IMG/VR virus record: IMGVR_UViG_3300027763_000047
Location: 6,308 to 70,307 of that record
Strand: one strand, 5' to 3'
Origin: a virus
Taxonomy: Duplodnaviria; Heunggongvirae; Uroviricota; Caudoviricetes
Length of the DNA: 64,000 bases
In this document: piece after piece, positions 979-57,981 of the stretch
Layout of the letters: every line of letters starts with the position of its first letter
Position numbering within the stretch: the stretch's first letter is position 1
Notes under the pieces: model-generated
Databases searched by the model: none
Told to the model about the DNA's origin: nothing
What the model saw: only the letters and a program-made list of their open reading frames with translations
Position numbers and translations under genes: made by a program

Positions 979-979
979 T

Positions 980-1183: not shown

Positions 1184-1184
1184 T

Positions 1185-3197: not shown

Positions 3198-3415
3198 TTT
3201 TTCCAGCAAGAATACCCAAGATGATTGCACAAGGTGAGATAGTGGCAATGGAACATGACTGGATTAAGACATTTATTCTATTGCCACATCGTACTATTGG
3301 GCATCGCTGGGTATGGTTAAAACGCATATATGTACGCAAAGTATGGATCTGCACAGGTTTTCATATCGAGCCAGAGACGCAGTATGGTGAATTATTTGAT
3401 ATCTTAAAAACATAA
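3194..3415 (+). CDS. hypothetical small protein embedded in the array (lacks the family C-terminus)
   Basis: ATGA overlap start 3194; ends ...LFDILKT. Confidence 0.5.
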   Translation: MIFPARIPKMIAQGEIVAMEHDWIKTFILLPHRTIGHRWVWLKRIYVRKVWICTGFHIEPETQYGELFDILKT

Positions 3416-3687
3416 TGATTACCGTTGATAAACAACCCAGATTAACACATGAAGTTAGGATAGGTGACAGATCTAACCTTGAGGTTGAACGGTTATGTAC
3501 ATGGTGCCACGAACAATTTGGAATAAGATTCAGTATTGTTGATCGTCCTGATAAGCAACCAACGTTTGGCCGCGATGGAGTATGGCAATGTATATACGAT
3601 GGATTTCAAAGGGATAGAGTTCCTGCGTATAAATTCTCATTTGATCATGAACAAGATGCTATACTTTTTGCCCTGAGGTGGTCATGA
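3415..3687 (+). CDS. small paralog-array protein, member 15
   Basis: W-C-H-E-Q-F-G-I-R core; C-term EQDAILFALRWS. Confidence 0.65.
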   Translation: MITVDKQPRLTHEVRIGDRSNLEVERLCTWCHEQFGIRFSIVDRPDKQPTFGRDGVWQCIYDGFQRDRVPAYKFSFDHEQDAILFALRWS

Positions 3688-3890
3688 TAATTATCAATGG
3701 AATCTCTCCGTGTATTTATAAAGCGGCAGGATGGTTAAGAAAACGGGCGTCGACACCGCCTGGCGAGCGATTGGATGATGAGTTTGCACAATATTTTAAT
3801 TGCCGTGTGGTCAGGAACGATGTTCTTAGTTTCCATATTGAATTCGATGATGACGCAGCCGCAACAATGTTTAAGTTGAGGTGGTCATGA
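3678..3890 (+). CDS. small paralog-array protein, member 16
   Basis: C-term DDAAATMFKLRWS. Confidence 0.6.
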   Translation: MVMIIINGISPCIYKAAGWLRKRASTPPGERLDDEFAQYFNCRVVRNDVLSFHIEFDDDAAATMFKLRWS

Positions 3891-4141
3891 CTGAAATTGT
3901 GCTGGAAGATTTGCTGGATTTTAATTTTACACAATTGGTTGAAATGCAGGATTGGTTAATTGAACACTTTGGAGAAAGCCGAATAGACGATATTGGAAGA
4001 TGGACTGGCGGTAGCTGGTTTTTACATCGAGTCTGGCGACCAGTTGACGGTTATCAGCGAGTACCCAGACACTACGGGCGTTGGATAGTGCAATTTGCAA
4101 ACGAACAAGATGCTACATTATTTAGATTGAGGTGGGCATGA
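3881..4141 (+). CDS. small paralog-array protein, member 17
   Basis: D-W-L-I-E-H-F-G core; C-term EQDATLFRLRWA. Confidence 0.6.
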   Translation: MVMTEIVLEDLLDFNFTQLVEMQDWLIEHFGESRIDDIGRWTGGSWFLHRVWRPVDGYQRVPRHYGRWIVQFANEQDATLFRLRWA

Positions 4142-4383
4142 TAATGATGGGGCGAGTAGTAGAAATAAGAAATAAGAGTCCAGACGAATGGTCTGAGATT
4201 ATGGCATGGTGTACAGAACAATTCGGGCTGCGAGCACTACACATAAATGAAGTTGCTGAATTTTCTCCACGAGGGGTGCTGGGTGGAAAATGGCTGGGAT
4301 CTTACTATGCATTTATTGGATGGGGTGATGTATATTTTCGACATGAGGAAGATGCTACACTTTTTATGTTAAGGTGGCTATAA
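4132..4383 (+). CDS. small paralog-array protein, member 18
   Basis: A-W-C-T-E-Q-F-G-L core; C-term EEDATLFMLRWL. Confidence 0.65.
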   Translation: MGMIMMGRVVEIRNKSPDEWSEIMAWCTEQFGLRALHINEVAEFSPRGVLGGKWLGSYYAFIGWGDVYFRHEEDATLFMLRWL

Positions 4384-4655
4384 TGACGGAATACGAATCA
4401 CAACATGCTTACTGGCAGAAAGACCATGATGCGGTTATGAAAGAAATGCAAGCGGAAAAAGCACAGATGGAAAAATACCCTCATCAAATTAAGGTGCAGA
4501 GTGTTGTAATTGATACTGGAAATAAAGAATGGTTTGTACGATGGCACTGGTGCGGTGAGAATTTTACCAAGGAAACTTATCGGTATAGCGGTGGATATTT
4601 TCAATTCCAGCATGAACAAGATGCAATATTTTTTGCGTTAAGGTGGAGCTCATGA
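4374..4655 (+). CDS. small paralog-array protein, member 19
   Basis: C-term EQDAIFFALRWSS; probable ATG 4383. Confidence 0.6.
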   Translation: MAIMTEYESQHAYWQKDHDAVMKEMQAEKAQMEKYPHQIKVQSVVIDTGNKEWFVRWHWCGENFTKETYRYSGGYFQFQHEQDAIFFALRWSS

Positions 4656-4834
4656 AAGTTACTTTACCCTATGATCCGTTATGGAAACCTTTGGAATGGG
4701 CCATGAAATATTGCCCAAGCTATATTACCAATGATGTGCATTGTGACGGATACAACACTTATGATAATACTAAGATTGATTATTTTTTTGGAAAAGAAAA
4801 AGATGCGACATTTTTTGCGTTAAGGTGGGCATAA
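4643..4834 (+). CDS. small paralog-array protein, member 20
   Basis: C-term EKDATFFALRWA; probable ATG 4652. Confidence 0.6.
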   Translation: MELMKVTLPYDPLWKPLEWAMKYCPSYITNDVHCDGYNTYDNTKIDYFFGKEKDATFFALRWA

Positions 4835-5037
4835 TGGACAATACAGAAAAACATTACATAAAAGTTTATTTGGTTAATGATGCACCCGGGTATAATTTAA
4901 AAAGAAAACAAATGGTCAATTGGATTAAGACATGCTGTAATGATTATAAATTGATAGATTCAGCTATTGATGGATTAGCGTATTCTGTATTTTTAACGGA
5001 GCAGGATTATATTATGTTTACACTGAAATGGGAATGA
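4825..5037 (+). CDS. small paralog-array protein, member 21
   Basis: C-term EQDYIMFTLKWE. Confidence 0.6.
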   Translation: MGIMDNTEKHYIKVYLVNDAPGYNLKRKQMVNWIKTCCNDYKLIDSAIDGLAYSVFLTEQDYIMFTLKWE

Positions 5038-5213
5038 CTGAAAGGGGAATGAGCCAAGAACCATGGACTTTTGTGTCTGTATCTAACATTGATGAGCCGG
5101 CCTGGATATGGTTACGCGAACAGCTAGACTTACGAACCTGGGATCATACGTATGACGGATTTTGGTTTATGCACGAACAGGATGCCATAATGTTTACATT
5201 AAAGTGGATATAA
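5028..5213 (+). CDS. small paralog-array protein, member 22
   Basis: C-term EQDAIMFTLKWI. Confidence 0.6.
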   Translation: MGMTERGMSQEPWTFVSVSNIDEPAWIWLREQLDLRTWDHTYDGFWFMHEQDAIMFTLKWI

Positions 5214-5464
5214 TGTATAATAACACTAAACCTAAGTATCAGTTTCATCGTGCTAAATGGTTCGAGTACGAAATGTGGGAGCCGTTTCCTGCAGGAAGGC
5301 CCGTCAATCAAGATAGAGTAAAGGCAATGCTTGAATGGTGTAAGGAACAATTTGGACCTGCACCCCCCATTACTGATGCATGGACACGATGGAGTGTATC
5401 CTACAGTATCATACGATTTAGGGACGAGAAGGATTATATATTTTTTATGTTGAAATGGGCATGA
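5213..5464 (+). CDS. small paralog-array protein, member 23
   Basis: TAATG overlap start 5213 (track ORF 5162); E-W-C-K-E-Q-F-G core; C-term EKDYIFFMLKWA. Confidence 0.65.
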   Translation: MYNNTKPKYQFHRAKWFEYEMWEPFPAGRPVNQDRVKAMLEWCKEQFGPAPPITDAWTRWSVSYSIIRFRDEKDYIFFMLKWA

Positions 5465-10462: not shown

Positions 10463-13400
10463 TTAATAAAGTTTTGTATAACCATAATTAACTACCACAG
10501 AGTTGCCGCTGGTGTTGTTAATGCTAAAGTCAAATCTATTAGTAGTACTACTTGGAGCAACATTGCTTCTAACTATGGCGTTGGCTGTGCCTATAAATTG
10601 ATTGGGTATGCTGACAAAATCCAACGGTGTACCGCCACCGTTGTAAACCCAAGCATATTGTGTACCCACCACTGGAACATTGGTATTAGTAATGGTAGCT
10701 AGGGCATTCCACGCAATGATGCCGTTGGGTATATTGCCAGTGACCCACATATTATATGTGCCGCTACTTACAGTAAAGCTGTAAGTGTTGGTGCCAGCGG
10801 TTACTGACCAAGAGCCGGTTGTTTGTTGGGCCACATTGGTCAAGCCTGATCCATTACCAACAAAGGTATTAGCAGTAACATTGCCGGCAGCACTGATATT
10901 TGCACCAGAGATGTTGCCAGAAGAGGGTTCAACGGTAGCATAGTTATTATACTTTATATTACCATCATAGAGCATTATACTCATATAACCATTGGAGGTA
11001 ATATCTTGTGTGACTGCTGGAGCTGGTAAACTAGTTAATTGACTACCATTACCTAAAATATAATTGCCAGTAATATTACCGTAGGCACTTAGTGATCCGC
11101 CTGACATACTTGATGGTATCGTAATATCGCCACCACTTACTGTTAATCCTTGTACTCCGGTAATGTTGGCACTGACAACTGTTAGTTCTGACCCAGATGT
11201 TATGTTGCCCGAAACGCTAATATTGCCTTGTTGTATATTAAGATTACTTAGTACATTGCCACTTAAACTTAAATTACCACCATTGATATTTTGTCCATTT
11301 ACATTGGCACCTATTATATTGCCTTCCGCGCTAATGCTACCACCCATGCCGGTATTGGAAGACATTGTAAGATTTCCACCTTCCATTGTAAGGCCATTAA
11401 CACTATAAATGTTAGCGCCATATGCAAAGATGTTGCCACTCAAACTAATATTGCCTGCGGATATATTAGCAGCATTTACATTGCCGCTTATGTTGGCATT
11501 ACTAATAATATTACCTGATAAACTTAGGTTAGCGGCATTAATATCGCCTGAGAAGTTAGCACCAAAAGCATTAAGATATCCGCCGAGGCCAGTAATTTGA
11601 TTAATATTAATATTACCAGCATTGGAAGTAATGCCTGTTACTGTGTCAATTAATAATCCAGAGGCTGTAATGTTACCTGAAGTTGATATTACGTTACTAC
11701 CAAAGTCGCCTAAGAAGTTAGCCACGTTAGCGTTGCCATAATCGCTACCACCAATTGATACCGGGGTACCATTAGCGTAGTTAACTGCAAAAGTATTAGC
11801 TGGTAGAGTCAAGTTGCCTGTGTTACCAAATAACCATTGGTTAATGTTTGGGCCAGCGTTAGTAAAAATACCAACAGAGAAGTCGCTAGTAATACCAAAG
11901 ACGCCTTCGCCTCCGCTTATTGAAGAGTTGTCAGGAAACCTTAAACCACCATTTACACCAAATGTCCATTGTGCTGAGTTACCTACATTGTCATTAGTAT
12001 TAATAACAACGTTACCTGTGTTGGCTAGCTTGACGTACAAGTCATCACTGCCGAAGAACAATTCTGTAGAGTAAAGATTACCCGAAGTCAAGTGCAGATG
12101 ATTGGCATCATTAGTGGTTGGATAAATTAATAACTGTTGATCAGCATTTGTTCCACCTGTTGGCTTTAAAGCAATGGCACTGCCGCTAAGTCCGCCGTCC
12201 GGAATGTTGGTTTCATAGACAACACTATTCAATGGCAAGGTCAAGTTACCAGTAGTGTCAAAGTTCCAAGTCTTTGTGCCACTGACATTACCAGCCTGTA
12301 TGGCCACATTGCCATCCTGTAAAACAGCAACATTGGCTTGTTCATCTGTGCCCAAAATCACATTACCAACGCCACCACCAGCTGCTACATGTATATCCGC
12401 GTTCCCAGTCAAGTAAATATTTAAATACTCATTGCTGGCACCGTTTGGTTGTAGGTTTAAGTTTCCTGTGCCAATGATGTTGACATCATCAAATGTAACA
12501 TTACCTGTATTACCACCTCCGCCACTGAATGTAACAGGATCACCATTGGCATAGTTTACAGCGAATGTATTGGCTGGTAATGTTAAGTTACCAAGGCTAT
12601 CAAATATCCAAGTATTACCAGTTGAAGTGTACCCGTTCCAAGACTGTATGGAAACATTGCCGATTGGAGAAACTCCAACCATCACATTGGCACCAGCATC
12701 TTCACCTAATATAAGACTTCCATCATTGTTGGTAACATGAAGGTCTGGTCCAGAGGTTAGGAAGATGTCCAAATATGAAGCAGCATTGGTAGGATCTGGT
12801 TGTAAGTGTAAGTTACCTGTACCAATGACATTAATATCATTGAATGTTACATTGCCTGTGTTACCACCGCCACCGCCGTATGGACTACCGTTAGCATAGT
12901 TAATACTTGAGTAATTATTTGGTAATGTTATGTTACCGTCAACGCCGAATGTCCAATCAGTCGGAGCAGTATTATTATTACCGGCATTGGCAGCAGTATT
13001 ATATTTGGTTATTACAAATGTTGCCCCACCATTACCAGCAGTCATAGTCAATACATCACCTTCGGAATAACCTGTGCCCGGATCAGTTACACCAACGTTA
13101 ACAACCTGACCACTTAAACCATAACCGTAACCTACTATCATACCTGTACCTGTGCCTCCGGAAATAGCAGAAGAACTTCCGCCACCACCGTAACCACTGC
13201 CACCAGTTAGTAATGTACAGATATTATATTGACCTGTTACTCGTAGTGTCAAGTCGTTTACATTCGGTGCAATGATAGTAGCACTGTTGGGTAGTGTTAA
13301 GTTACCATTTACACCAAAGGCCCATGTATTGGCATTGGCTGTGATATTAACGCTAGTATTACTAGTTTCACTTATTTGGCTACCTTGAGGCAATGTCAAT

Positions 13401-16400
13401 GCACCACTAGCATTAAAATCCCATAGATTAGGACCAGGGCTACCATTTTGTCCTACTGCTATTCTAACAATACCTGATCCTGGAGTAGGGTTAGCATATA
13501 CTGCCGCTATGTTGCTGATGCCAACGTTCGCATAATCTTCTATCCATATGGATACTGCCGCACCATTGGCTCCAGTTGACAATATGGACAGTGGATGATC
13601 CGTAGATGCAATAGAAGCAATATTACCAGCAGGGTCATCAGGTGTGATAACTAAATTACCTGTTGGGAATGTTAAGTTACCAGTAGTGTCAAAGTTCCAC
13701 TGTGCTGAGTTTCCGGTGGCATCATCACTGCCGATCACAACATTGCCGGCGGCTTCTAATTTTACATACTTGATATCGGAGCCAAAGTATTGATCAAAAT
13801 AAGCATTGTTGCCTGTGTCAAGGTGTATGTGTGTGGCAACATCGCCACCACGCACTCGAATATATTGTAAATTGCCCACGCTTTCGGTGCCTGGAGCCAG
13901 GTACAGGCCACTGCTGCCAACTTGATCTCCAGTGCCCACAACAGCTTGATCGTCGAATGTAACGTTGCCTGTGTTGCCGCCGCCACCAGCCGTGTCATAT
14001 GTGATCTCACCAGTAGATGCATCATAATACATGGCATTTGCTGTGTTGGCTTGTCGCACTGGTTTCACTGTGAATGTGTTGACAGTGGTTTGCTCCAGGA
14101 CTGATCCTGTGGCGTTCAATATGATTGAGTTGTTGGCTTGATTGGAGTTGCCGGCTCCGTAGCCAATGGCCACTGCGTATTGGCCCTGTGTGTCTCGCCC
14201 GGCTCCATCACCAACGGCCACGGCCGAGATGCCTTGTGTGTTGTAACCAGCATTTTCGCCAATGGCCACTGCTGAGTTGCCTTGTGTGGTTTGACCAGCT
14301 TCAAAACCAATAGCCACGCCATAGATGCCTTGTGTGGTTTGACCAGCAAGTCTTCCAAATGCTATTGCCGAGGTTCCTTGTGTGGTTGCGCCAGCCCCAA
14401 AACCAATTGCTATTGCCGAGCCACCTTGTGTGGTTTGTCCAGCTCCTTGGCCCACAGCCACCGACGATTCACCTTGTGTGGTTTTACCAGCACTATCACC
14501 GATTGCTACTGATTGGTCACCTTGACTGGTATTACCAGCTTGATAACCAATGGCCACTGATATATTACCTTGATTGACATTACCAGCCGAGTTGCCAATG
14601 GCTACTGCAACCAGGCCTTGATTGGTTAGTCCAGCACCCGAACCAAATGCCACTGCGTCACCCACAGTGTCTTGAATTGTTGCACCGTTTGTGAGTGTGA
14701 TCACGCCTGTGCTGATATTGCCTGCTGTGATATTGCCCGTGGTGCTGATTGGGTTTGATCCTAATGCAGCCAAGTTAGCAACAACATTGGCGTTGCCATA
14801 ACTTGCGGAAATACCAGTCAGTTGACTACCGTTGCCCAGAATATAACTACCAGTGATGTTGCCAACAGCACTGATGTTGCCAGGCACAGTCAAGTTACCA
14901 TCTGTGCCAAAGGTCCATGCATTACCGGCAGTTCTATCCGTGATACTATAATTGTTGCTACCATTGCCAAGAATACCAAAGTCCCATTGCTGAGTTGCGG
15001 TGGCCTGATCCTGCACTGACATATAAGCACTACGCGGAGTATTGTAGTTGTCATCGTAGCCAACCACAGTAATGCCAGGGCCAGCCACAATGCCAAAGTC
15101 TGTGCTTTCTACTCTTGGAGTATTGACCGTTATGTATGGAGTATAATCAACTCGGGGCTGGTAAGCCGTGTTACCGTTAATATCCAATAGACCATCGCCA
15201 TCGAACTGCATGGTGGTGTAGGTATCACCAGGCGTACCGCCTTGATTGGAAAAATCTCCCAACCAATTTATCTGCACCGCTCCAGAGTTGCCGCTAGGAT
15301 AACCACCGTAAGGATCGCCATTGGCATAGTTGATTGATATTTCGCTGTTACCTGGCAGTGTTAAGTTACCATCAGTGTCAAAAGCCCAGTTATAGGTGTT
15401 TGTTCCAATTGATATGTTACCACCGGATTCTAACTTGACATATTTGCTATCATCACCAAAGTATTGATCAAAATAACCATTATCGCCAGTGTCAAGATGT
15501 ATGTGTGTGGCAACATCACCACCACGCACTCTCAAGTATTGTAAATTGCCCGAGCTGTTAGCGCCAGGAGCCAAATACAAGCCACTGCCGCCGATTTCAT
15601 CGCCTGTGCCTACTACAATGTTATTATCAAATGTAACATTACCCGTATTACCGCTACCAGATGGCAGACCAGTTAATTGACTTCCATTGCCTAGGATGTA
15701 ACTTCCGGTAATATTACCAGTTGTTGAAATTACTACGTTACTGTTTGCCAAATATGTAGAAACATCAGCATTTGAGTAACTGGCTGGAAGATTAGTTAAT
15801 TGACTTCCATTACCAACGAAATAATTAGCAGTAATATTGCCGGTAGCAGATACCGTACCTACTGTAAGAACTTCTGTTCCGGAATTATACTTGAATAAAT
15901 TAGAAGTAGTAATATAACCGGTAGAATTAGCAAACGCTACAGCATTAGCATAATAATTAGGAGAGTACAGATTATTTAAAGTAACATCGCCGGCGTTGAT
16001 TGATCCTGTCGTACTAATTGTGTTGGAACCAAAGTTTGCTAAGAAACCAGCAGTATTTGCATTTCCATAATTAGAAGCAATACCAGTTAGCTGACTGCCA
16101 TTGCCAAAGAAATAACTAGCGGTGATATTGCCAGTAGTTGATATATTTGATGTTAATGCTTGTAAGTAAGATGAAACATTGCCATTAGCATATACTTGGC
16201 CTTGTAATGTAGTTATATTACTTGAATTGTTTGAAACATTAGATTGAATACTAATTATAGTATTGTCAGTTGGCAAGTATACGGCTACATTACTGTTACC
16301 ATAACTAGTAGTAACTACAATATTTGATATCAGACCGCCATCACCAATAAAATAGCCACTTGTTGTAATATTACCTACAATAGATAAATTGGCGGTTGAT

Positions 16401-17437
16401 GCTAATTGATATGCCATTCCGGCTACAACAGCTGAGTTGGCATTGTCCGCTTGAACAGCATAAGTTGCTGCGTTAGCTGTTTGTGCTATAGTGGCTGTGT
16501 TAGCAAATGATGCTAAGTTGGCATTGATTGCGAATAAAGCAGTATCAGCATTGATCGCCTGAGTAGCCAATGCTGCTAGATTAGCTACATATGCTGTGTT
16601 AGCAACAAGAGCAAACGGCACATTACCTACAATAGCATTGGCTGTAATGTTAGTGATATTGCTGCCATTGCCATACAGATAATTAGCAGTAACTCTATTA
16701 CCAACAATAGCATTGGCATATACATTCCCGGTTGTTGATACATTACCAGTGATAGATAAGGCAGATATTTGTCCAAAACTAGTTAAGTTTGAATAATTTA
16801 TGCTATTGCTGAATGTATTTCCAAGTAAAGCATTGGCCTGTACATTGGCAATAACATTGGTTAAATTGGCACCATCACCGATGAAAGTAGGTGCTGTAAT
16901 AGCAATTGTGCTATTCCAGCTGTTAGCTGAGTAATTATATGTAAAGTTAGCTCCTGCTATAGGAATTAACAGTCCGCCGCCATTAGCCTGTGCTGCATTG
17001 GCAGCACCGGTTGCTAGTGTAACATTTGAATTAGCAACAGATAAATTAGAATAGTTAACAGTAATAACATTGCCTGTTACCTGCAGGTTACCAGCTACAT
17101 AGACATTACCGGAGAACGTACCGGTGGCAGCGTTTATATATTGAGCGTAAACTGTACTGAAACGATTGGTACCCAACCCAATTGACCGGACATTGGGCAC
17201 ATCTGGTACAAAGTTGGCTGCTGGCACAACAACACCAATGCCATTTGTGGCTAATTGTAAATTGCCATTGTTATTGGTAACCTGTATGGTATTGTTGGCA
17301 ATTGTGATATTGCTGCCCACCGGGCCCGCTGCAAAAAGCTGTGTAAAATTGTAATTGGTGTCGGTAAAAGCTGTACGAAGTGGCGCACCTGTGCCATCGT
17401 TAGCGATATTGCCGGTATTGATAATTATTTGTCCCAT
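10463..17437 (-). CDS. giant tail fiber protein (2324 aa)
   Basis: N-term MGQIIINTGNIANDGTGAPLRTAFTDTNYNFTQLF fiber motif; about 13 S-A-V-A-I-G-x-x-A-G-x-T-T-Q-G repeats; multiple W-x-F-x-x-x-G-N-L-T-L-P and GNGSQLTG modules. Confidence 0.85.
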   Translation of the reverse strand: MGQIIINTGNIANDGTGAPLRTAFTDTNYNFTQLFAAGPVGSNITIANNTIQVTNNNGNLQLATNGIGVVVPAANFVPDVPNVRSIGLGTNRFSTVYAQYINAATGTFSGNVYVAGNLQVTGNVITVNYSNLSVANSNVTLATGAANAAQANGGGLLIPIAGANFTYNYSANSWNSTIAITAPTFIGDGANLTNVIANVQANALLGNTFSNSINYSNLTSFGQISALSITGNVSTTGNVYANAIVGNRVTANYLYGNGSNITNITANAIVGNVPFALVANTAYVANLAALATQAINADTALFAINANLASFANTATIAQTANAATYAVQADNANSAVVAGMAYQLASTANLSIVGNITTSGYFIGDGGLISNIVVTTSYGNSNVAVYLPTDNTIISIQSNVSNNSSNITTLQGQVYANGNVSSYLQALTSNISTTGNITASYFFGNGSQLTGIASNYGNANTAGFLANFGSNTISTTGSINAGDVTLNNLYSPNYYANAVAFANSTGYITTSNLFKYNSGTEVLTVGTVSATGNITANYFVGNGSQLTNLPASYSNADVSTYLANSNVVISTTGNITGSYILGNGSQLTGLPSGSGNTGNVTFDNNIVVGTGDEIGGSGLYLAPGANSSGNLQYLRVRGGDVATHIHLDTGDNGYFDQYFGDDSKYVKLESGGNISIGTNTYNWAFDTDGNLTLPGNSEISINYANGDPYGGYPSGNSGAVQINWLGDFSNQGGTPGDTYTTMQFDGDGLLDINGNTAYQPRVDYTPYITVNTPRVESTDFGIVAGPGITVVGYDDNYNTPRSAYMSVQDQATATQQWDFGILGNGSNNYSITDRTAGNAWTFGTDGNLTVPGNISAVGNITGSYILGNGSQLTGISASYGNANVVANLAALGSNPISTTGNITAGNISTGVITLTNGATIQDTVGDAVAFGSGAGLTNQGLVAVAIGNSAGNVNQGNISVAIGYQAGNTSQGDQSVAIGDSAGKTTQGESSVAVGQGAGQTTQGGSAIAIGFGAGATTQGTSAIAFGRLAGQTTQGIYGVAIGFEAGQTTQGNSAVAIGENAGYNTQGISAVAVGDGAGRDTQGQYAVAIGYGAGNSNQANNSIILNATGSVLEQTTVNTFTVKPVRQANTANAMYYDASTGEITYDTAGGGGNTGNVTFDDQAVVGTGDQVGSSGLYLAPGTESVGNLQYIRVRGGDVATHIHLDTGNNAYFDQYFGSDIKYVKLEAAGNVVIGSDDATGNSAQWNFDTTGNLTFPTGNLVITPDDPAGNIASIASTDHPLSILSTGANGAAVSIWIEDYANVGISNIAAVYANPTPGSGIVRIAVGQNGSPGPNLWDFNASGALTLPQGSQISETSNTSVNITANANTWAFGVNGNLTLPNSATIIAPNVNDLTLRVTGQYNICTLLTGGSGYGGGGSSSAISGGTGTGMIVGYGYGLSGQVVNVGVTDPGTGYSEGDVLTMTAGNGGATFVITKYNTAANAGNNNTAPTDWTFGVDGNITLPNNYSSINYANGSPYGGGGGNTGNVTFNDINVIGTGNLHLQPDPTNAASYLDIFLTSGPDLHVTNNDGSLILGEDAGANVMVGVSPIGNVSIQSWNGYTSTGNTWIFDSLGNLTLPANTFAVNYANGDPVTFSGGGGNTGNVTFDDVNIIGTGNLNLQPNGASNEYLNIYLTGNADIHVAAGGGVGNVILGTDEQANVAVLQDGNVAIQAGNVSGTKTWNFDTTGNLTLPLNSVVYETNIPDGGLSGSAIALKPTGGTNADQQLLIYPTTNDANHLHLTSGNLYSTELFFGSDDLYVKLANTGNVVINTNDNVGNSAQWTFGVNGGLRFPDNSSISGGEGVFGITSDFSVGIFTNAGPNINQWLFGNTGNLTLPANTFAVNYANGTPVSIGGSDYGNANVANFLGDFGSNVISTSGNITASGLLIDTVTGITSNAGNININQITGLGGYLNAFGANFSGDINAANLSLSGNIISNANISGNVNAANISAGNISLSGNIFAYGANIYSVNGLTMEGGNLTMSSNTGMGGSISAEGNIIGANVNGQNINGGNLSLSGNVLSNLNIQQGNISVSGNITSGSELTVVSANITGVQGLTVSGGDITIPSSMSGGSLSAYGNITGNYILGNGSQLTSLPAPAVTQDITSNGYMSIMLYDGNIKYNNYATVEPSSGNISGANISAAGNVTANTFVGNGSGLTNVAQQTTGSWSVTAGTNTYSFTVSSGTYNMWVTGNIPNGIIAWNALATITNTNVPVVGTQYAWVYNGGGTPLDFVSIPNQFIGTANAIVRSNVAPSSTTNRFDFSINNTSGNSVVVNYGYTKLY

Positions 17438-51063: not shown

Positions 51064-51684
51064 TTGACTATGGCAAACAAAGCATTCGATTCAGAAATAT
51101 TCAAAGATCACCAAGATTATTGGCAAGTGGCCCAAAACATCAAGGACATATACCTATCCGAGGGTACGCTATTGACCCTGTTAGACTTCGAGCGTGTATT
51201 AGATTCCATGGATCTATACGCATTTAAAAACTGGGATATCGGTGAGCTGGTACAAGGCCCAACAGTGGGAAAATATCACGTTAGTTGTATATTTCTCTGG
51301 CCCGAAAACTTAATGCCCGATCCACGTGGTGGACGTAGATTATTACCGTTTGATTGTACTGTAAAGTACAAGAAAACTGACATGAAGATTCCCATTAAAA
51401 TTGATGATCCTAGCGATTATCGCCCGGGAACAAAAATAGCAAGAATCATTGAGAAAAAGGTATGGTTGGTGGAAATCACCATGCCCAAAACTTTGATGAG
51501 CGATATACGTACAGGCAGTATTGATCTTGAAGAACAGGAACTTGATCTACAAGAATTAGATAACGCTTATTCGGTTGATGAACGTGGTACTGCACCTAGC
51601 GCACCGCCTGGAGCAGCACCGGCCCCAGCGGCACCTGCTGCTGCCGCAGCAGCCGCACCGGCCGCACCCCCCACTGGCGCATAA
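51064..51684 (+). CDS. hypothetical protein with Pro/Ala-rich C-terminus
   Basis: 206 aa; CTAAATACTTGA motif just upstream. Confidence 0.5.
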   Translation: MTMANKAFDSEIFKDHQDYWQVAQNIKDIYLSEGTLLTLLDFERVLDSMDLYAFKNWDIGELVQGPTVGKYHVSCIFLWPENLMPDPRGGRRLLPFDCTVKYKKTDMKIPIKIDDPSDYRPGTKIARIIEKKVWLVEITMPKTLMSDIRTGSIDLEEQELDLQELDNAYSVDERGTAPSAPPGAAPAPAAPAAAAAAAPAAPPTGA

Positions 51685-52492: not shown

Positions 52493-52753
52493 TTATTTTA
52501 CTGAATCAAATATCTTTTTTTGTTCTATATACCAGTTATTCCACGCATCAACTTTGTAACTACATTCATGATATTTTCCATAGTTTGTAGTTACATTAGA
52601 TATTAAAACACTTAGTTTATTAGTTATAGGAGCAGCAGTAAGCTGTTCACATGCTGTGGTCAATGATGGCGGAACAGATGGAAAATTTCTTTCAACCGGC
52701 GTTGCGACACAGCCTGTTAAAAATAATAAAGATAAAATTATAACTGATTTCAT
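52493..52753 (-). CDS. o-spanin-like outer-membrane lipoprotein
   Basis: lipobox LFLTGC; ATGA overlap with upstream gene. Confidence 0.5.
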   Translation of the reverse strand: MKSVIILSLLFLTGCVATPVERNFPSVPPSLTTACEQLTAAPITNKLSVLISNVTTNYGKYHECSYKVDAWNNWYIEQKKIFDSVK

Positions 52754-53196
52754 TTCTTAACTCCTACTAATGCTGATTGATTTAGTATGTCAATAGCCAA
52801 TGGATCAACTTTACAAGTTAAGTCAAGTTTAGCAGCATTTTTGGCAATGCGATTTTTAACTACATACTGAACTTCTTTCACAATTTTAACACGATCAACA
52901 TACACCGTTTCAATTTTGCCATTAGCTTCAGCGGCCTCCTTCTCTGCCTTAGCAACCTTTATTTCAAGTTCGGCAACTCTTGCTGCCCATTTGGCTTCAT
53001 TTGCAATTCCGCCTTCTATCCACACACAAAATACAATAAGCACGGCACTAGCAATACGAATTACAAATGCATTGGTTGTGATAAAAGGAATCATTTTAAG
53101 AATGTAGCTGGCCCCAAATGCTAGTATAGCAAATATTAACAATAGATGATATACAAAATCAGGTAATAAAGATAACAGCCACATTATTTGCCACAT
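52750..53196 (-). CDS. i-spanin-like membrane protein with coiled coil
   Basis: N-terminal TM(s) then AARVAELEIKVAKAEKEAAEANGKIE coiled coil; directly downstream of endolysin. Confidence 0.45.
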   Translation of the reverse strand: MWQIMWLLSLLPDFVYHLLLIFAILAFGASYILKMIPFITTNAFVIRIASAVLIVFCVWIEGGIANEAKWAARVAELEIKVAKAEKEAAEANGKIETVYVDRVKIVKEVQYVVKNRIAKNAAKLDLTCKVDPLAIDILNQSALVGVKK

Positions 53197-53197
53197 A

Positions 53198-53827
53198 TCA
53201 TGCCCCTAGTACGTGACAAGCATGTTGATAGTGTTTTTCTCTGTCAGCAAGGCCAATGGTGCCACCATTGATTCGTTTAGTTAATGTTAAAATATCACCT
53301 GCGTCAGCAAATTGATTTAGTCCATTAGTTTCCCAGAACCAACATGCGCTCTGAACAGCGCCTTCAAATGTACCTAGGTACTCTGGCAATTGTTCAACAG
53401 GAGTTTCTATACTTTCCGCAAAGCGTGTATAATTATCTTTGCCTGTTAACTGGATAAGACCCTTGCCTGCGTAACGCCATCCATCACCACTTTCTTCTGG
53501 ACCATTGCCCATGCGGTCACAATAAGCACGATTGGCTATCATTTCTTGATTGTGTGCGTATTGCTCTGCAATAGCAGGCGGAAAACGACTAGGCCAGACA
53601 CGGCTTAATGATGCTGCTGTGTAGTTTAAGTTTTCTTTTAATGCTGTAAAATTAGCACTCTCGTGGGCACATTGAGCTAAAAAAGCAGCTACCCTAGGTA
53701 CTGTGTTAATTTCGTAATCAGGTAATATACGTGATATAGCATCATACCACTCTGCCACATACGGATTGTTAGGTATAATTTGTGCCAGTTGTTCTGGTGT
53801 AAAGTTGAATGCGAATCCTTGACTCAT
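53198..53827 (-). CDS. GH19 (chitinase-like) endolysin
   Basis: AAFLAQCAHESANF and YAGKGLIQLTGKDNY signatures. Confidence 0.8.
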   Translation of the reverse strand: MSQGFAFNFTPEQLAQIIPNNPYVAEWYDAISRILPDYEINTVPRVAAFLAQCAHESANFTALKENLNYTAASLSRVWPSRFPPAIAEQYAHNQEMIANRAYCDRMGNGPEESGDGWRYAGKGLIQLTGKDNYTRFAESIETPVEQLPEYLGTFEGAVQSACWFWETNGLNQFADAGDILTLTKRINGGTIGLADREKHYQHACHVLGA

Positions 53828-53838
53828 TTAATTTTCCT

Positions 53839-54195
53839 TTATTTTTTAGGTACTAGGTGACCAAACTGAGCTTCAGCACGGCGTGTGCCTGGACCAGTAA
53901 TTCCATCTGCTGTGATCTTAGCTCCGGCAGCAATTAGTTCTTTTTGACGTTTCTGAACAGCAGCATCAAAACCAGGTGGTTTAGCAGCTGGCTTGGCAGG
54001 TGCCTTAGCTGGTACTGCTGTGCCTTCGTATTTCTTGTGTACCTTAATAGTACGGCAAGTTTGCTTAGTTGTCCCATCTTTATTTAATACAACATGACCA
54101 GCTTTGTCTTTAACTGGATTACATACTTGTTTAGTTTCGGCGGCATTAGCAGAAGATGCTATGCCTAATATGATTATTGCAAATAGAGTTTTCAT
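53839..54195 (-). CDS. secreted protein with PG_binding_1-like domain
   Basis: signal peptide; DGITGPGTRRAEAQFG. Confidence 0.5.
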   Translation of the reverse strand: MKTLFAIIILGIASSANAAETKQVCNPVKDKAGHVVLNKDGTTKQTCRTIKVHKKYEGTAVPAKAPAKPAAKPPGFDAAVQKRQKELIAAGAKITADGITGPGTRRAEAQFGHLVPKK

Positions 54196-54204
54196 TATTA
54201 TTCC

Positions 54205-54729
54205 TTATAAGGGTTGATCTACTTGTGCTGCTGGACCTGGTTTGCCAGCATACATAGTTTTTGTTGGTGCGCTGTTAAACCCGGGAGATGGACTGTTAAA
54301 TCCATTTGAGGGACTATTGAATCCAGGTGATGGGCTACCAAATCCAGATGATGGACTGTTAAGCCCGGTTGACGGACTGTTAAATCCTGACGATGGGCTA
54401 CCATATCCATTTGATGGATTATTACCATACCCTGTATTCATGCCATTGTTGACCCCGGCTAATTTTTCTTGGGTACGCCCAAATGCCGCTACTCCTATTA
54501 TGGCACCCATTGCCATATGAAATAGTCCTGCTCCTTGAAGAGTGATTGGTTGCCATTGTGTTTCAACACGGCCACCATGTGCTGCTTGTATTAAACTCCA
54601 TAGTATAGGAAATACCACAAAATCACACATACAGACAAACATATACATCCACCCCATCATAGGGCGCCATTTGCTGTTCATCCAATCTTCTTTTTTCTTT
54701 TCGCTTTCAGATTGTACTGTTTCTGACAT
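54205..54729 (-). CDS. holin-like membrane protein with C-terminal SPSxGFN heptad repeats
   Basis: two TM segments; 7 tandem S-P-S-x-G-F-N repeats; first gene of lysis cluster. Confidence 0.4.
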   Translation of the reverse strand: MSETVQSESEKKKEDWMNSKWRPMMGWMYMFVCMCDFVVFPILWSLIQAAHGGRVETQWQPITLQGAGLFHMAMGAIIGVAAFGRTQEKLAGVNNGMNTGYGNNPSNGYGSPSSGFNSPSTGLNSPSSGFGSPSPGFNSPSNGFNSPSPGFNSAPTKTMYAGKPGPAAQVDQPL

Positions 54730-54779
54730 ACTAAATCCTCGAATTGTACAGATATTTATCTAGATTCACCAAAGCTAGA

Positions 54780-54808
54780 TTGACATAAATATCGTTTTAC
54801 TATACAAT
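54780..54808 (+). promoter_or_regulatory. sigma70-type promoter
   Basis: ttgacataaatatcgttttactatacaat. Confidence 0.6.
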
Positions 54809-54840
54809 ACACCCATGACTATCTTATACCCTGTTACCAT

Positions 54841-55638
54841 ATGAGTAATCCTTACGATACACTGGGCGTGCCTAAAAACGCCACTACTGACGAAATTAAA
54901 AAGGCTTACCGCAAGTTGGCTAGTCAACATCATCCTGACAAAGGTGGCGATACCAAAAAATTCCAAGACATACAAACAGCTTACGAGACACTGGGTGACG
55001 AACAAAAACGTGCTCAGTATGATAGACCACAGCCGCAAGGTGTGCATTTTGAATTTGGTGGACCGGGAGGATTCGATCTCGGTAGTATATTCAATATGTT
55101 CGGGGCGAAGGGATTTCAAAATCATCCTCCTGGTCAGCCACCAAGACAACAGCACACACGCATGAGCTTGTGGATTACCTTATCAGACATTGCATCGGGC
55201 GGAAAACGTACAGTAGCCATTGGCGGTAGCCACGGTAGTATGAACATTGAAATCGAAATCCCCATGGGTATCAATGATGGAGACAATGTTCAGTATGGAG
55301 GAATTGGTCCGGGAAATACGGATCTAATTATTAACTTCCGTATTCATCCTCACCCCAAATGGCAACGTAATGGATTGACACTAATTGCCGAACAAACGGT
55401 ATCCATCTGGGACTGTTTAGTAGGCGGTGAAACAATTGTAAAAGATTTACTGAATAATCAATATACTATTAGTGTTCCCCCATTAACTCAACCAGGGAGT
55501 TTATTAAGATTAAAAGACAAAGGGTTGCGTAACAGGCAAGGTCAGTCCGGAGATCTACTGATTAGGATTCAGGCTAAAATGCCAGAATCTATCAGCCAAG
55601 AGCTATCGGAACTGATTAAAGAGCAGCAGGAAAAATAG
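54841..55638 (+). CDS. J-domain protein (DnaJ/CbpA-like, no zinc finger)
   Basis: YDTLGV...AYRKLASQHHPDKGG (HPD motif) plus DnaJ C-terminal-like domain. Confidence 0.8.
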   Translation: MSNPYDTLGVPKNATTDEIKKAYRKLASQHHPDKGGDTKKFQDIQTAYETLGDEQKRAQYDRPQPQGVHFEFGGPGGFDLGSIFNMFGAKGFQNHPPGQPPRQQHTRMSLWITLSDIASGGKRTVAIGGSHGSMNIEIEIPMGINDGDNVQYGGIGPGNTDLIINFRIHPHPKWQRNGLTLIAEQTVSIWDCLVGGETIVKDLLNNQYTISVPPLTQPGSLLRLKDKGLRNRQGQSGDLLIRIQAKMPESISQELSELIKEQQEK

Positions 55639-55701: not shown

Positions 55702-57981
55702 ATGCAAAACAACAAAGAAATTGAAGCAATTGTAGGGCAGGCGGTTTCGATTGCTCGGATTAAACATCACGAGTATGTGCTAACCGAACATATATTATTG
55801 GCCTTAATACGCCACATTCCTTTCCGCAAAGTACTGGAAGGATTCGGTACAAGTATTGCACTCATGGACGAGGAATTAGATGTCTATTTGGACAGTTTAA
55901 CCAGTATAGTTACATCTAAGTCAGAATTTCAACCACGTAAAACTAACGCCCTTGAACGTTGTTTTAATCGGGCTATGACACAGGTGTTATTTACTGGCCG
56001 CCGTTCAGTAACCACATTTGATTTGTATCTTGCTATGATGAGTGAGACAAACAGTCACGCACATTACTTCCTGATGAAGTATGGAGTTAAGAAAGCCGAG
56101 TTTATGGAATACTGGCAGCAAAATTATAAAGCTGAAGATGCCGAGGTTAGTGCTTCTGAAGCTGATGCCATCTTAACTGAATTTTGTACAAACCTAACCA
56201 AAATGGCTACTGAAGATAAGTTAGAGCCAATGATTGGCCGCTCAGCTGAACTAGACGAAATCATTACTGTACTGGCTCGAAAGTTTAAAGCTAACGTACT
56301 AATGGTGGGCGATCCGGGTGTAGGCAAAACTGCCATCGCAGAAGGGCTTGCCCAGGAAATTGTAAACAACCGTGTACCCGCATTCCTTAACGGACATGAA
56401 GTATGGAGTTTGGAAATCGGCTCATTGTTAGCCGGCAGTAAGTATCGTGGCGAATTTGAGGAAAAGTTTAAACAGGTCATTGGTGCATTAGAAGCCAAGA
56501 AAAATTGTATCTTATTTGTTGATGAAGCACATACAATGAAAGGCGCTGGCGCAAGTTCACAATCATCACTAGACTTTGCTAATATGCTAAAGCCAGCTAT
56601 TACCAAGGGTTATCTTAAGGTAATTGCGTCAACTACCTGGGAAGAATTCTATGAGTCATTTGAAAAGGATCGTGCGCTAATGCGTCGATTCCATCGTGTG
56701 TCCATTGACGAACCCACGCCAGAAGTAACGGAGCAAATCTTAATCGGCTTATCACCTCGCTTGGAAAAATTCCACGATGTGTTGATTGATACTGATGCTA
56801 TTAAAGCAGCAGTAGACTTGTCGGGTCGTTACATACATGATCGCAAGAATCCAGATAAGTCAATTGACTTGCTAGACGGTGCATGTGCCAAGGAACGTGT
56901 TAAAGATATAGGCACTACTACTGTGACTAAAGACATGATCATGGCACAGTTGAGTCGTATTACTGAGGTTCCCATGGATCGTTTACAAAACGAACGTTCG
57001 GCTAATATTGTGGAACTGGAAGGTAATATTAAACAGAAGTTGTATGGCCAAGACGAAGCTGTTAATTCGGTACTTGAGCGGGTATACATTAACTTCTCGG
57101 GTATTGGTAACGAAAACAAACCAATTGCCAGCTTCTTATTCTTGGGACCAACTGGCACAGGTAAGACAGAATTGGCCAAGTTATTGGCTGAGCATTTAGA
57201 TATGCAGTTGTTGAAATATGACATGAGTGAGTTCCAGGAGAAGCATACTGTTAGCTCATTGATTGGTGCTCCCCCAGGATACGTTGGGTTTGAAGATGGT
57301 AATGTGGGTGGTGGAAAACTTATTAGTGATGTCAGTAAGAACCCTTATTCAATCTTGTTGTTTGATGAAATTGAAAAGGCACATCCGGATGTAGTTAACC
57401 TTATGTTGCAAATGTTGGATGAAGCTCGCATCACCAGTGCCAATGGTAAAACTGTTAACCTGAAGAACTGCATCATTATTATGACCAGTAACTTAGGTGC
57501 TCGCGACAATGAGAATAACAACATTGGCTTTGGGCAGACACTGGAAAAGACAGGATCAGAACACAAGGCAATGAAGGATTTCTTTAAACCTGAATTACGT
57601 AATCGTATTGATCAAATCTGTCGCTTTAAGAAACTAGATACACTGGCTGTTAAGAAAATTGTTGTTAAATTTGTTGATCAACTACAAACCAGTTTAAGCA
57701 CAAAGAATATTCGTCTTAACTTATCCGAGCCAGTAATCGACATGCTGGTTGAAAAAGGCTATGATAACAAGATGGGTGCTCGACCATTAAATCGTAAGAT
57801 TGATGAACTTATTCGCGTACCATTGAGTAAGAAAATTCTCTTTGAACGATTAAGTGACTGTGTAATTACAGCGGACATGGTTAATGATCAAATTGACTTT
57901 ATCATCATACCTAATCCCGCATTAGCTATTGTCGACAACTCAGGAATTATTTTACTTGATGGCGAATCTTCCACCGTTTAA
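55702..57981 (+). CDS. ClpA-like AAA+ unfoldase (two AAA domains)
   Basis: Clp-N LTEHILLALI; D1 GDPGVGKTAIAEGLA; D2 GPTGTGKTELAKLLAE, LLFDEIEKAHPDV; 759 aa. Confidence 0.85.
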   Translation: MQNNKEIEAIVGQAVSIARIKHHEYVLTEHILLALIRHIPFRKVLEGFGTSIALMDEELDVYLDSLTSIVTSKSEFQPRKTNALERCFNRAMTQVLFTGRRSVTTFDLYLAMMSETNSHAHYFLMKYGVKKAEFMEYWQQNYKAEDAEVSASEADAILTEFCTNLTKMATEDKLEPMIGRSAELDEIITVLARKFKANVLMVGDPGVGKTAIAEGLAQEIVNNRVPAFLNGHEVWSLEIGSLLAGSKYRGEFEEKFKQVIGALEAKKNCILFVDEAHTMKGAGASSQSSLDFANMLKPAITKGYLKVIASTTWEEFYESFEKDRALMRRFHRVSIDEPTPEVTEQILIGLSPRLEKFHDVLIDTDAIKAAVDLSGRYIHDRKNPDKSIDLLDGACAKERVKDIGTTTVTKDMIMAQLSRITEVPMDRLQNERSANIVELEGNIKQKLYGQDEAVNSVLERVYINFSGIGNENKPIASFLFLGPTGTGKTELAKLLAEHLDMQLLKYDMSEFQEKHTVSSLIGAPPGYVGFEDGNVGGGKLISDVSKNPYSILLFDEIEKAHPDVVNLMLQMLDEARITSANGKTVNLKNCIIIMTSNLGARDNENNNIGFGQTLEKTGSEHKAMKDFFKPELRNRIDQICRFKKLDTLAVKKIVVKFVDQLQTSLSTKNIRLNLSEPVIDMLVEKGYDNKMGARPLNRKIDELIRVPLSKKILFERLSDCVITADMVNDQIDFIIIPNPALAIVDNSGIILLDGESSTV

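Follow-up and report, generated by a model that had tools for sequence, protein, structure and literature searches.

The moment of lysis is central to phage fitness, and what is known of its determinants has been learned from a few holins of coliphages and Vibrio phages. Class II holins, e.g. S68 of the lambdoid phage 21, have two transmembrane domains (TMDs) and an N-in/C-in topology, and characterized holins end in a short, highly charged cytoplasmic C-terminus. Here we analyze a five-gene region on the minus strand of a 64,000-nucleotide stretch of phage DNA (IMG/VR record IMGVR_UViG_3300027763_000047, Caudoviricetes, positions 6,308 to 70,307 of that record; the whole stretch is hereafter the window), whose open reading frames (ORFs) encode a putative holin with a long repeat-containing tail (ORF-A), a small secreted basic protein (ORF-B), a GH19 endolysin (ORF-C), and a candidate spanin pair (ORF-D and ORF-E). 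TeaA of Vibrio phage ICP1, a member of the PF11351 family, is a holin with experimental support that makes the proton motive force collapse and is triggered by dinitrophenol (DNP), and it has an adjacent antiholin, ArrA (PMC7182436). In phage T4 the antiholin RI is a secreted protein with a cleavable signal peptide, which is believed to sense periplasmic DNA (PMC8385771). The phiKZ lysis cassette has five genes (holin, endolysin, i-spanin, o-spanin, and regulator), the regulator being reported to bind the cytoplasmic domain of the holin (PMC12894885).

We put at about 65% the probability that the region is the operon for late lysis in a freshwater jumbo phage not yet in culture, in which a canonical holin-endolysin-spanin set is joined by a fifth, periplasmic component and ORF-A is a shortened two-helix derivative of the PF11351 (GTA_holin_3TM) holin family. 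ORF-A matches PF11351 with E = 3.9e-7 (31.0 bits against a cut-off of 24.8; Pfam) and the ‘holin’ family phrog_3427 with E = 3e-9 (PHROGs), and two hydrophobic segments are found by hydropathy (Table 1). We infer from this family membership and from the genomic context that ORF-A acts as a holin. A previous interpretation of the DNA, made without database searches (hereafter the sequence-only reading), had proposed a lysis cassette with this gene order, headed by a holin-like protein with two transmembrane (TM) helices, with a GH19 endolysin and an o-spanin-like lipoprotein whose gene has an ATGA overlap; the ORF list and the family matches bear out all five minus-strand ORFs with their coordinates, and these assignments hold. 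The cassette as such is ordinary, and its GH19 endolysin and LysC-type o-spanin are of known kinds.

More than 8000 homologs of ORF-A were found in a large protein collection, mostly from lake metagenomes and phage contigs of 90–350 kb, and a precomputed PF11351 hit is present on all of the best ones. All of the best 120 have a core that hardly varies (…EKKKEDWMNSKWRPMMGWMYM…TQWQPITLQGAGLFHMAMGAIIGVAAFGRTQEKLAG.NNGG), followed by a low-complexity tail that is hypervariable and by a conserved C-terminal peptide. Residues invariant in 69 homologs are W21, R22, P23, D36, P41, W44, and S45 in the region of helix 1, and G66, A67, G68, L69, H71, G75, A76, G79, and G84 in that of helix 2. An exhaustive HMMER search of 1.84 billion cluster representatives returned 1108 clusters at E ≤ 1e-3, and the best 150, taken as 50%-identity representatives, include two architectures. 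Type 1 proteins (26 of the 150) have an N-terminal extension of 70–156 residues, which is taken to carry the third TM helix of the Pfam model, and end 5–7 residues past the last helix. Type 2 proteins (56 of the 150) have a short N-terminus, with 12–25 residues ahead of the WRP motif, and a tail that is 30 residues or longer, which in 23 of the 56 ends in [K/R]..P…P.[L/I/V]. ORF-A is a type 2 protein.

The 82-residue tail of ORF-A contains only two K/R and one D/E residues, and its repeat region reads NPSNGYG, SPSSGFN, SPSTGLN, SPSSGFG, SPSPGFN, SPSNGFN, and SPSPGFN. Where the sequence-only reading had counted seven copies of SPSxGFN, there are indeed seven units in all, of which six are canonical SPSxG[F/L][N/G] and one is degenerate; with Tandem Repeats Finder, the stretch 54272–54418 is called at periods of 21, 42, and 63 nt and scores of 106–173. 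Units 5 and 7 encode the same peptide with six of seven codons synonymously different, indicating that the repeats are old rather than a recent slippage product, and that the pattern is maintained at the peptide level by purifying selection. The identical 174-residue protein is called on 11 independent lake-metagenome contigs, which excludes an assembly artifact.

Tail length varies from 20 to 132 residues across the large ORF-A subfamily (32–125, median 79, in the 119 closest clusters). Even among 29 homologs with a core at least 85% identical to that of ORF-A, the tail spans ∼40–87 residues and 0–7 heptads. Three phage contigs that share a neighboring gene encode holins of 157, 159, and 160 residues (94–96% identical), in which the indels and most of the substitutions fall in the tail, here built from the unit ASPFPAAAP. 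Tail units of other lineages are GGFGQQS, PSFS, and GGYGS, and the homolog from Sinorhizobium phage Phosso has a Q/Y/P-rich tail. A check on variation in repeat number, suggested along with the original gene calls, was thus run in silico: the variation is extensive between lineages, and single alleles recur across samples. The tail had also been called unusual, and it is so by comparison with characterized holins; it is not peculiar to this phage, being the rule in a large subfamily.

Despite this variability the tails have much in common. Tail cores in the 119 closest clusters are composed of G (20%), S (18%), P (13%), A (11%), N (9%), T (8%), and F (7%); no charged residue exceeds 0.4%, all of them together stay below 1%, and there is about one F/Y per 10 residues. 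In the C-terminal peptide, which is recognizable across diverged tails, G162 and P172 are at least 90% conserved; examples of tail ends among the best 120 homologs are …AGKPGPAAQVDPPL, …TGKPMPMQPDQPEL, and …GFGGKPAPMQPEQPQI. Judged from these alignments, the heptad tail is a lineage-specific form of a widespread architecture, comprising a two-TM core, a hypervariable tail, and a conserved C-terminal peptide, and selection probably preserves both the composition of the tail (uncharged, with approximately one aromatic per 10 residues) and its terminal peptide. We considered whether the tip motif might point to a shared docking partner, and rejected this candidate: the window proteins with such ends are ORF-A and one spurious 63-codon frame only. 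A second variable disordered C-terminus is present in the same phage, on a 206-residue ORF (51064–51684, plus strand) with an Ala/Pro-rich low-complexity end (…APSAPPGAAPAPAAPAAAAAAAPAAPPTGA); its homolog in a related locus (L005 in our numbering) has a different, Pro/Glu/Ala-rich end.

The distribution of charge predicts where the tail lies. Averaged over 223 family members, the 20-residue stretch leading into helix 1 contains 4.9 K+R residues, the loop between the helices 0.38, and the first 12 positions past helix 2 contain 2.4; under the positive-inside rule these counts place both termini, and hence the tail, in the cytoplasm. Periplasmic exposure of ORF-A would then be confined to a loop of ∼14 residues (…HGGRVETQWQP…). 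The counts also fit a family in which type 1 proteins are N-out/C-in (class I-like) and type 2 proteins N-in/C-in (class II-like). An AlphaFold2 model of ORF-A, built from a 69-sequence alignment, has helices at residues 8–50 (predicted local distance difference test, pLDDT, 80–88) and 63–91; the tail has a pLDDT of ∼40, and the last 14 residues have values of 58–64. The tail is thus modeled as intrinsically disordered.

ORF-A has a constant companion. Exact and near-exact copies of the cassette are present on contigs from freshwater metagenomes, and related cassettes on phage contigs of 264, 333, and ∼350 kb; the order PF11351 protein, small secreted protein, endolysin, i-spanin, and lastly o-spanin recurs in independent phage contigs of up to ∼354 kb. 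In a second layout (loci L005 and L014), the GH19 and spanin genes lie upstream with other genes intervening, and a secreted K/A/P-rich protein of 67–80 residues is encoded directly 3′ of the holin gene. These partners are without the Cys hairpin of ORF-B and keep a …KKHKKFEG[T/E]KVPE… motif. Because the partner follows the holin even where the endolysin has moved, the invariant unit is the type 2 holin plus a small secreted basic protein, and this adjacency suggests a holin/regulator pair analogous to T4 T/RI or ICP1 TeaA/ArrA. Our literature search found nothing relevant on disordered or low-complexity holin tails: a PF11351 holin of type 2 whose disordered tail is hypervariable and ends in a conserved tip is undescribed in the literature searched, as is the constant pairing of the tailed holin with an abundant unannotated secreted family, and the combination is very common in lake metagenomes.

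The partner in the window, ORF-B, consists of a signal peptide (…SSANA, followed by AE), which is its sole hydrophobic segment by hydropathy, a Cys2 β-hairpin module, an AKP linker, and a helix-loop-helix resembling half of a PG_binding_1 domain (PG, peptidoglycan). The mature protein is strongly basic, with an isoelectric point (pI) of 10.1 and 20 K/R in 100 residues. Its N-terminal part (signal peptide, ETKQVC…NKDGTTKQTC, and RTIKVHKKYEGTAVP) corresponds to a far more numerous group of stand-alone secreted proteins of 66–82 residues, encoded in the same gene slot in phage contigs of 264–354 kb. Close homologs of ORF-B have 103–130 residues, and the PG-like segment is restricted to these longer forms. 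A profile search collected more than 5575 relatives, none with a Pfam domain, and tblastn with ORF-B against 50,697 phage records gave no match even at E = 1.

The sequence-only reading had described ORF-B as a secreted PG_binding_1 protein. Secretion stands, as a predicted signal peptide; the PG_binding_1 (PF01471) assignment is below threshold (12.8 bits against 23, E = 0.14), covers profile positions 3–33 of 57, i.e. half a domain, is lineage-specific, and is absent in sister phages. The match to PG_binding_3 is likewise at E = 0.14, and an alignment profile of ORF-B hits the PG-binding domain of PDB 5nm7 over the same half of the domain (E = 1.3e-3). ORF-B is therefore better described, as far as its alignments go, as a conserved small secreted basic protein with a lineage-specific half PG-binding add-on. 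By analogy it may be a periplasmic lysis regulator (antiholin-like) or an envelope-binding accessory, and we infer that it is most economically a lysis regulator, a periplasmic accessory co-evolving with the type 2 holin. Two other origins were considered. The 66–82-residue relatives are not captured host proteins, in that every inspected context is a phage contig (28–354 kb) with the same lysis-cassette slot; and a derivation of the PG-like segment from an N-terminal PG-binding domain of a displaced downstream endolysin is not supported, in that the PG_binding_1 domain of the sister phages is C-terminal on the GH19 endolysin.

The remaining three proteins complete the cassette. ORF-C scores above the cut-off of the GH19 family PF00182 (31.1 bits against 25.5) and matches phrog_181 ‘endolysin’ (E = 2.6e-78), PDB 9eoi (E = 2e-47), and PDB 4ok7 (E = 1.5e-29), which we take to be the endolysin of Salmonella phage SPN1S; its identity to numerous annotated GH19 lysins of phages and pyocins is 44–49%. 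By eye, the sequence contains both the paired Glu of AHES..LKEN and the GKGLIQLTGKDNY motif. ORF-C has no hydrophobic segment or export signal by hydropathy, and as a soluble endolysin it would need a holin. In sister phages the endolysin carries a full PG_binding_1 domain. ORF-E is a predicted lipoprotein (lipobox LLFLTG before C15) that matches the LysC family PF23793 (E = 5e-7; 30 bits against a cut-off of 27) and the Rz-like spanin family phrog_456 (E = 2e-7).

ORF-D had been read as an i-spanin-like TM/coiled-coil protein. Its position and architecture agree with this, in that its place upstream of the o-spanin gene is kept in all related loci examined and an A/E/K-rich helical region follows a hydrophobic N-terminus of 63 residues; its sequence matches are weak (phrog_312 Rz-like spanin, E = 0.004; phrog_4952, E = 5e-6), and the N-terminus comprises about two hydrophobic segments (residues ∼14–33 and 43–60) rather than the usual single TMD. 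The ORF-D homolog of L005 (2950–3417) likewise has a long hydrophobic N-terminus by eye. A NCBIfam scan of the five cassette proteins and one short partner protein gave nothing meaningful.

The five genes are tightly packed, with gaps of 9, 11, and 1 nt between A/B, B/C, and C/D, respectively, and a 4-nt ATGA overlap between the ORF-D stop and the ORF-E start. Shine-Dalgarno-like GAGGA/AAGGA sequences precede ORF-A, ORF-B, and ORF-C. The cassette is flanked by a convergent plus-strand gene, which ends at 52474, and a divergent DnaJ-like gene, which starts at 54841, so that it looks like a self-contained transcription unit. Megablast with the cassette DNA gave zero matches among the 50,697 phage records, so that close relatives in culture are lacking for this phage. 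Other genes of the window encode a clamp loader, the DnaJ-like protein, and a 759-residue Clp-type double-AAA+ protein. We conclude that it derives from an uncultured freshwater jumbo phage.

Table 1. Features of the putative lysis cassette (window coordinates)
Feature	Coordinates	Strand	Description
ORF-A, 174 aa	54205-54729	minus	holin-like; short 2-TM form of PF11351 with low-complexity tail
ORF-A hydrophobic helix 1, aa 24-50	54580..54660	minus	predicted; Kyte-Doolittle mean 2.2
ORF-A hydrophobic helix 2, aa 66-84	54478..54534	minus	predicted; Gly/Ala-rich, GAGLFHMAMGAIIGVAAFG; Kyte-Doolittle mean 1.8
ORF-A seven heptads, aa 104-152	54274..54420	minus	NPSNGYG then six SPSxG[F/L][N/G]; protein reading and Tandem Repeats Finder
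ORF-A conserved C-terminal peptide, aa 161-174	54208..54249	minus	AGKPGPAAQVDQPL; GK..P....P.[L/I]-COOH across diverged tails
ORF-B, 118 aa	53839-54195	minus	secreted basic protein (predicted)
ORF-B conserved N-terminal mature module, aa 19-62	54010..54141	minus	C25, C47, motif KVHKKYEGTAVP; 50-62% identity to stand-alone proteins
ORF-B C-terminal half PG_binding_1-like segment, aa 76-118	53842..53970	minus	sub-threshold Pfam match
ORF-C, 209 aa	53198-53827	minus	soluble GH19 endolysin (predicted)
ORF-D, 148 aa	52750-53196	minus	i-spanin-like protein
ORF-E, 86 aa	52493-52753	minus	o-spanin lipoprotein (predicted); start overlaps ORF-D stop
ATAAATA	54753..54759	minus	23 nt upstream of ORF-A ATG, GAGGA between; candidate T4-late-type promoter element

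T4 late promoters have the consensus TATAAATA at the −10 position and depend on a gp55-like sigma factor. The sequence-only reading had noted an ATAAATA motif upstream of the cassette on the minus strand, at 54754–54760; the motif is present, one base away from those coordinates, and the extended sequence GATAAATA matches the T4 consensus at seven of eight positions. In the whole window ATAAATA occurs seven times (3713, 34403, 39703, 39967, 54753, 54785, and 58651) against 24.3 ± 3.8 expected, a ∼3.5-fold depletion, with all 100 shuffles having at least seven copies. Four of the seven (34403, 54753, 54785, and 58651) lie 7–50 nt upstream of a listed ORF start, and two face outward in the divergent intergenic region 54730–54840. 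Such under-representation, with several of the copies placed a short way upstream of genes, is suggestive of genome-wide selection on a promoter-type signal, and the copy upstream of ORF-A is compatible with a T4-late-like promoter element. The same intergenic region contains a sigma-70-like TTGACA-17-TACAAT (11 of 12 matches; 54780–54808, plus strand), which faces the DnaJ and Clp genes.

Several observations weigh against a lysis operon headed by a PF11351-type holin, and they bear on the alternatives. ORF-A covers only positions 58–122/123 of the PF11351 profile, i.e. the last two-thirds, and has two hydrophobic helices instead of the three of the full-length family; its N-in/C-in topology, with a cytoplasmic tail, is predicted by the positive-inside rule alone. 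By tblastn the N-terminal half only of ORF-A finds distant matches (26–36% identity), all in jumbo phages (Phosso, Atu_ph07, the PA5oct group, and NCTB), and the nearest cultured homologs, those of PA5oct, Atu_ph07, and Phosso, are ∼30–35% identical and do not adjoin lysis genes. Those of PA5oct and Atu_ph07 instead sit among structural, adhesin, or tail-fiber genes, and the PA5oct protein, which adjoins structural and adhesin genes, is annotated ‘structural protein’ with a note of electrospray ionization tandem mass spectrometry (ESI-MS/MS). On the side of the other cassette proteins, the i-spanin assignment of ORF-D is weak at the sequence level, and no similarity to a named antiholin family appears among the PHROG, Pfam, and NCBIfam hits of ORF-B. 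The AlphaFold2 model of ORF-B (β-hairpin at residues 20–52, helix at 78–89, short hairpin, and helix at 104–111) has a mean pLDDT of 67, and a Foldseek search with it against the PDB was uninformative (two tiny modules, predicted TM-score, pTM, of 0.29; best E = 1.3). The cultured homologs, including the Atu_ph07 one near a tail-fiber gene, would suit a reading in which ORF-A is another membrane protein, e.g. a virion-associated or an injection/exclusion factor, and the true holin lies elsewhere or in the multi-segment N-terminus of ORF-D, which is unusually long for an i-spanin. We regard this as very improbable given the PF11351 and PHROG holin matches of ORF-A, the fact that it heads the lysis cassette in each of the related metagenomic loci examined, the need of the soluble endolysin for a holin, and the lack of any further membrane protein in the operon besides the spanins and the exported ORF-B. 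As to PA5oct, either some members of the family do not serve lysis or the proteome includes a carried-over membrane protein; the literature searched held nothing relevant on a PA5oct holin annotation. The PA5oct homolog itself (L011, 3959–4285; EST35_0306) has 108 residues with two hydrophobic helices and no tail.

If ORF-A is a holin, its tail might still be functionless, a tolerated low-complexity sequence lengthened and shortened by replication slippage behind the two-TM core. The extreme variability of length and unit among close relatives would be expected of such a sequence, as would the different units of separate lineages (SPSxGFN, ASPFPAAAP, GGFGQQS, and the Q/Y/P-rich tail of Phosso) and the existence of three-helix relatives without any tail. 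Slippage accounts poorly, however, for an end peptide kept in frame across deeply diverged members, for a composition held to less than 1% charged residues and approximately one F/Y per 10, for identical heptads with synonymously diverged codons, or for the presence of tails in 56 of the best 150 representatives at 50% identity, and we consider a functionless tail unlikely. A tail that functions in the periplasm (N-out/C-out or an atypical topology), where ORF-B would bind it or its acidic proline-rich tip as a T4 T/RI-like sensor for lysis inhibition, would draw together the adjacency of the holin and secreted-protein genes in every related locus examined, the strongly basic ORF-B (pI 10.1), the D/E residues of the holin tip, an uncharged and hence easily translocated tail, and the precedent of T4 RI, a secreted antiholin with a cleavable signal peptide (PMC8385771). 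The charge counts (4.9 and 2.4 against 0.38 in the loop) nevertheless favor cytoplasmic termini strongly, the three-helix members end five residues after the last helix, consistent with an N-out/C-in class I protein, and translocation of the five K/R in the N-terminal segment EKKKEDWMNSKWRP would be difficult, making this arrangement a distant prospect. Somewhat easier to entertain, though still improbable, is that ORF-B is merely a peptidoglycan-binding accessory, which would attach to the wall to assist the endolysin or spanins and would have no part in regulating the holin. This would agree with the weak PG_binding_1/PG_binding_3 match (E = 0.14), the 5nm7 profile hit (E = 1.3e-3), the helix, hairpin, and helix modeled at residues 78–111, the name ‘peptidoglycan hydrolase-like protein with peptidoglycan-binding domain’ given to three ORF-B homologs by the Joint Genome Institute (JGI), and the full PG_binding_1 domain on the endolysin of the sister phages. 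Set against it, the domain covers 31 of 57 profile positions below threshold, and most members of the ORF-B family, at 66–82 residues, occupy the same gene slot without the PG-like segment, from which it follows that the conserved function lies in the N-terminal module and the HKK[Y/F/L]EGT.VP motif. Moreover, when the cassette is rearranged, the ORF-B-type gene stays with the holin and not with the endolysin.

In the lysis-operon reading that we prefer, ORF-A would enter the inner membrane as a hairpin of two helices whose ends both stay cytoplasmic, accumulate, trigger, and open holes through which the signal-less GH19 ORF-C could reach the wall. ORF-D in the inner membrane and ORF-E as an outer-membrane lipoprotein would then act as a two-component spanin and disrupt the outer membrane. 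The tail may serve as a flexible tether or spacer that presents the terminal peptide GKPGPAAQVDQPL to a cytoplasmic or membrane-proximal partner, or it could modulate lateral association of the holin; either role would tune lysis timing, and would leave the repeat unit and repeat number free to drift while composition and end peptide are kept. ORF-B would be exported by its cleavable signal peptide as an obligate neighbor of the type 2 holin, having gained the half peptidoglycan-binding fold in the window lineage only. The tail thus most plausibly tunes the timing of holin triggering, via lateral association or docking of the tip.

A broader proposal, which we offer as a speculation with the odds well against it, is that tailed two-helix PF11351 proteins and their exported lysine-rich partners form a new and very abundant holin/regulator system of freshwater jumbo phages. 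Here the FG-like cytoplasmic tail would be a cohesive or entropic sticker-and-spacer that sets the critical concentration for holin clustering and thus the lysis clock, the tip would dock on a defined partner, and the exported protein would be a periplasmic antiholin sensing superinfection (e.g. ectopic DNA), in a circuit for lysis inhibition whose sequences have no relation to T4 RI or ICP1 ArrA. At stake are two very large unannotated families (more than 8000 holin-type and more than 5500 secreted-partner clusters) that travel together in abundant lake jumbo-phage lysis modules. If tail and tip do control triggering, this would be the first holin clock tuned by a disordered domain of rapidly variable length, and the natural repeat-number alleles would be a ready series for relating tail length to latent period; should the partner prove to be an antiholin, a major environmental phage group would be added to those with lysis inhibition. 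If neither role holds, the result would still be a useful annotation of a standard lysis cassette.

The genes around the cassette in the window and in related loci were also inspected. The divergent DnaJ-like protein has 265 residues (54841–55638, plus strand) and is followed by the Clp-type unfoldase (55702–57981, plus strand), which is ClpA-sized with Clp_N, two AAA domains, and ClpB_D2-small. DnaJ-like and Clp genes flank the holin gene in L005 and L014 too, L005 also has a peptide deformylase, and a ClpP-family protease gene is near the cassette in L015 and L016. A functional link between the holin and the DnaJ/ClpA-like proteins, with the tip as a degron, was considered and set aside: the synteny is seen in L005 and L014 and not in L006, L009, or L015, and may be coincidental. 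Related lysis modules accumulate small envelope-targeted proteins, such as a 43-residue lipoprotein (lipobox LSVSAC; L006, 4857–4988) encoded between the holin and secreted-partner genes, and a 133-residue lipoprotein (LLPGC; L005, 3674–4075) after the o-spanin gene. Host-like outer-membrane genes (Porin_4 porin and OmpA-family) adjoin the cassette in the related jumbo-phage contigs L007 (2441–4161) and L009 (1859–3604 and 8617–10231), and a CHASE2-guanylate/adenylate cyclase gene is present in L009 too; such genes may be auxiliary ones for remodeling of the host envelope or of its signaling.

Farther from the cassette, 15 or more small ORFs of 61–93 residues are packed densely, head to tail, in one array of the window (1877–5213, probably ∼100–5464, plus strand). 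Most end in …[E/Q][E/Q]DA.LF.LRW[S/A]*, and the junctions are mostly ∼10-nt overlaps with a GTG/ATG start (‘MVM’, ‘MGM’) inside the preceding LRWS codons; the array looks like a large tandem paralog family, typical of the early regions of big phages. A single ORF of 2324 residues (10463–17437, minus strand) may encode a giant structural or tail-fiber-type protein.

Comparison with described systems shows how the cassette combines familiar and divergent elements. ORF-C is like the pyocin-type and SPN1S GH19 endolysins, and in this respect the cassette is unremarkable. The spanin pair resembles the two-component spanins LysB/LysC of P2, in that ORF-E passes the LysC model and the genes are adjacent and overlapping, although ORF-D has approximately two hydrophobic segments rather than one. 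Cohesive FG-repeat domains of nucleoporins, and the disordered linker of single-stranded DNA-binding protein (SSB) with its C-terminal tip, bear resemblances to the ORF-A tail that are leads only. Like these, ORF-A-type tails have aromatics every 7–10 positions (GFG, GFN, SFG, and PAFG), an uncharged G/S/P/A/N/T matrix, and a conserved docking-type end; unlike them, ORF-A belongs to a bacterial inner-membrane context, and it shares no homology with FG nucleoporins or SSB.

With respect to holins, ORF-A is like the class II proteins in having two hydrophobic helices in a predicted N-in/C-in arrangement, a Gly/Ala-rich helix, and a gene upstream of that of the endolysin. In contrast to phage 21, the endolysin of the window is soluble and not of the signal-arrest-release (SAR) kind, and, in place of a short, highly charged C-terminus, the C-terminal domain of ORF-A is long and uncharged. 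The T and RI genes are not adjacent in the T4 genome. T4 T/RI and the ORF-A/ORF-B pair are alike in joining a holin with a small secreted protein that has a cleavable signal peptide (predicted for ORF-B), and the basic ORF-B could in principle bind periplasmic polyanions such as DNA. The two pairs have no sequence similarity, and T has a single TMD with a large globular domain in the periplasm where ORF-A is predicted to have only its ∼14-residue loop. phiKZ is, like the window phage, a jumbo phage with a five-gene lysis cluster whose fifth product modulates holin timing; its regulator, however, is cytoplasmic and its holin class III, whereas the fifth protein of the window is predicted to be exported and the cytoplasmic domain of its holin to be the disordered repeat tail. 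The closest counterparts of ORF-A are the PF11351 holins, i.e. that of the Rhodobacter capsulatus gene transfer agent (GTA) and TeaA of Vibrio phage ICP1 with its ArrA, with which it shares the family hidden Markov model (HMM), the lysis-gene context, and a small envelope-targeted neighbor gene. ORF-B has a predicted cleavable signal peptide and no detected similarity to ArrA. In contrast to these holins, ORF-A dispenses with the N-terminal extension of 70–156 residues and the first TM helix, and adds a predicted disordered tail of ∼80 residues with a conserved tip.

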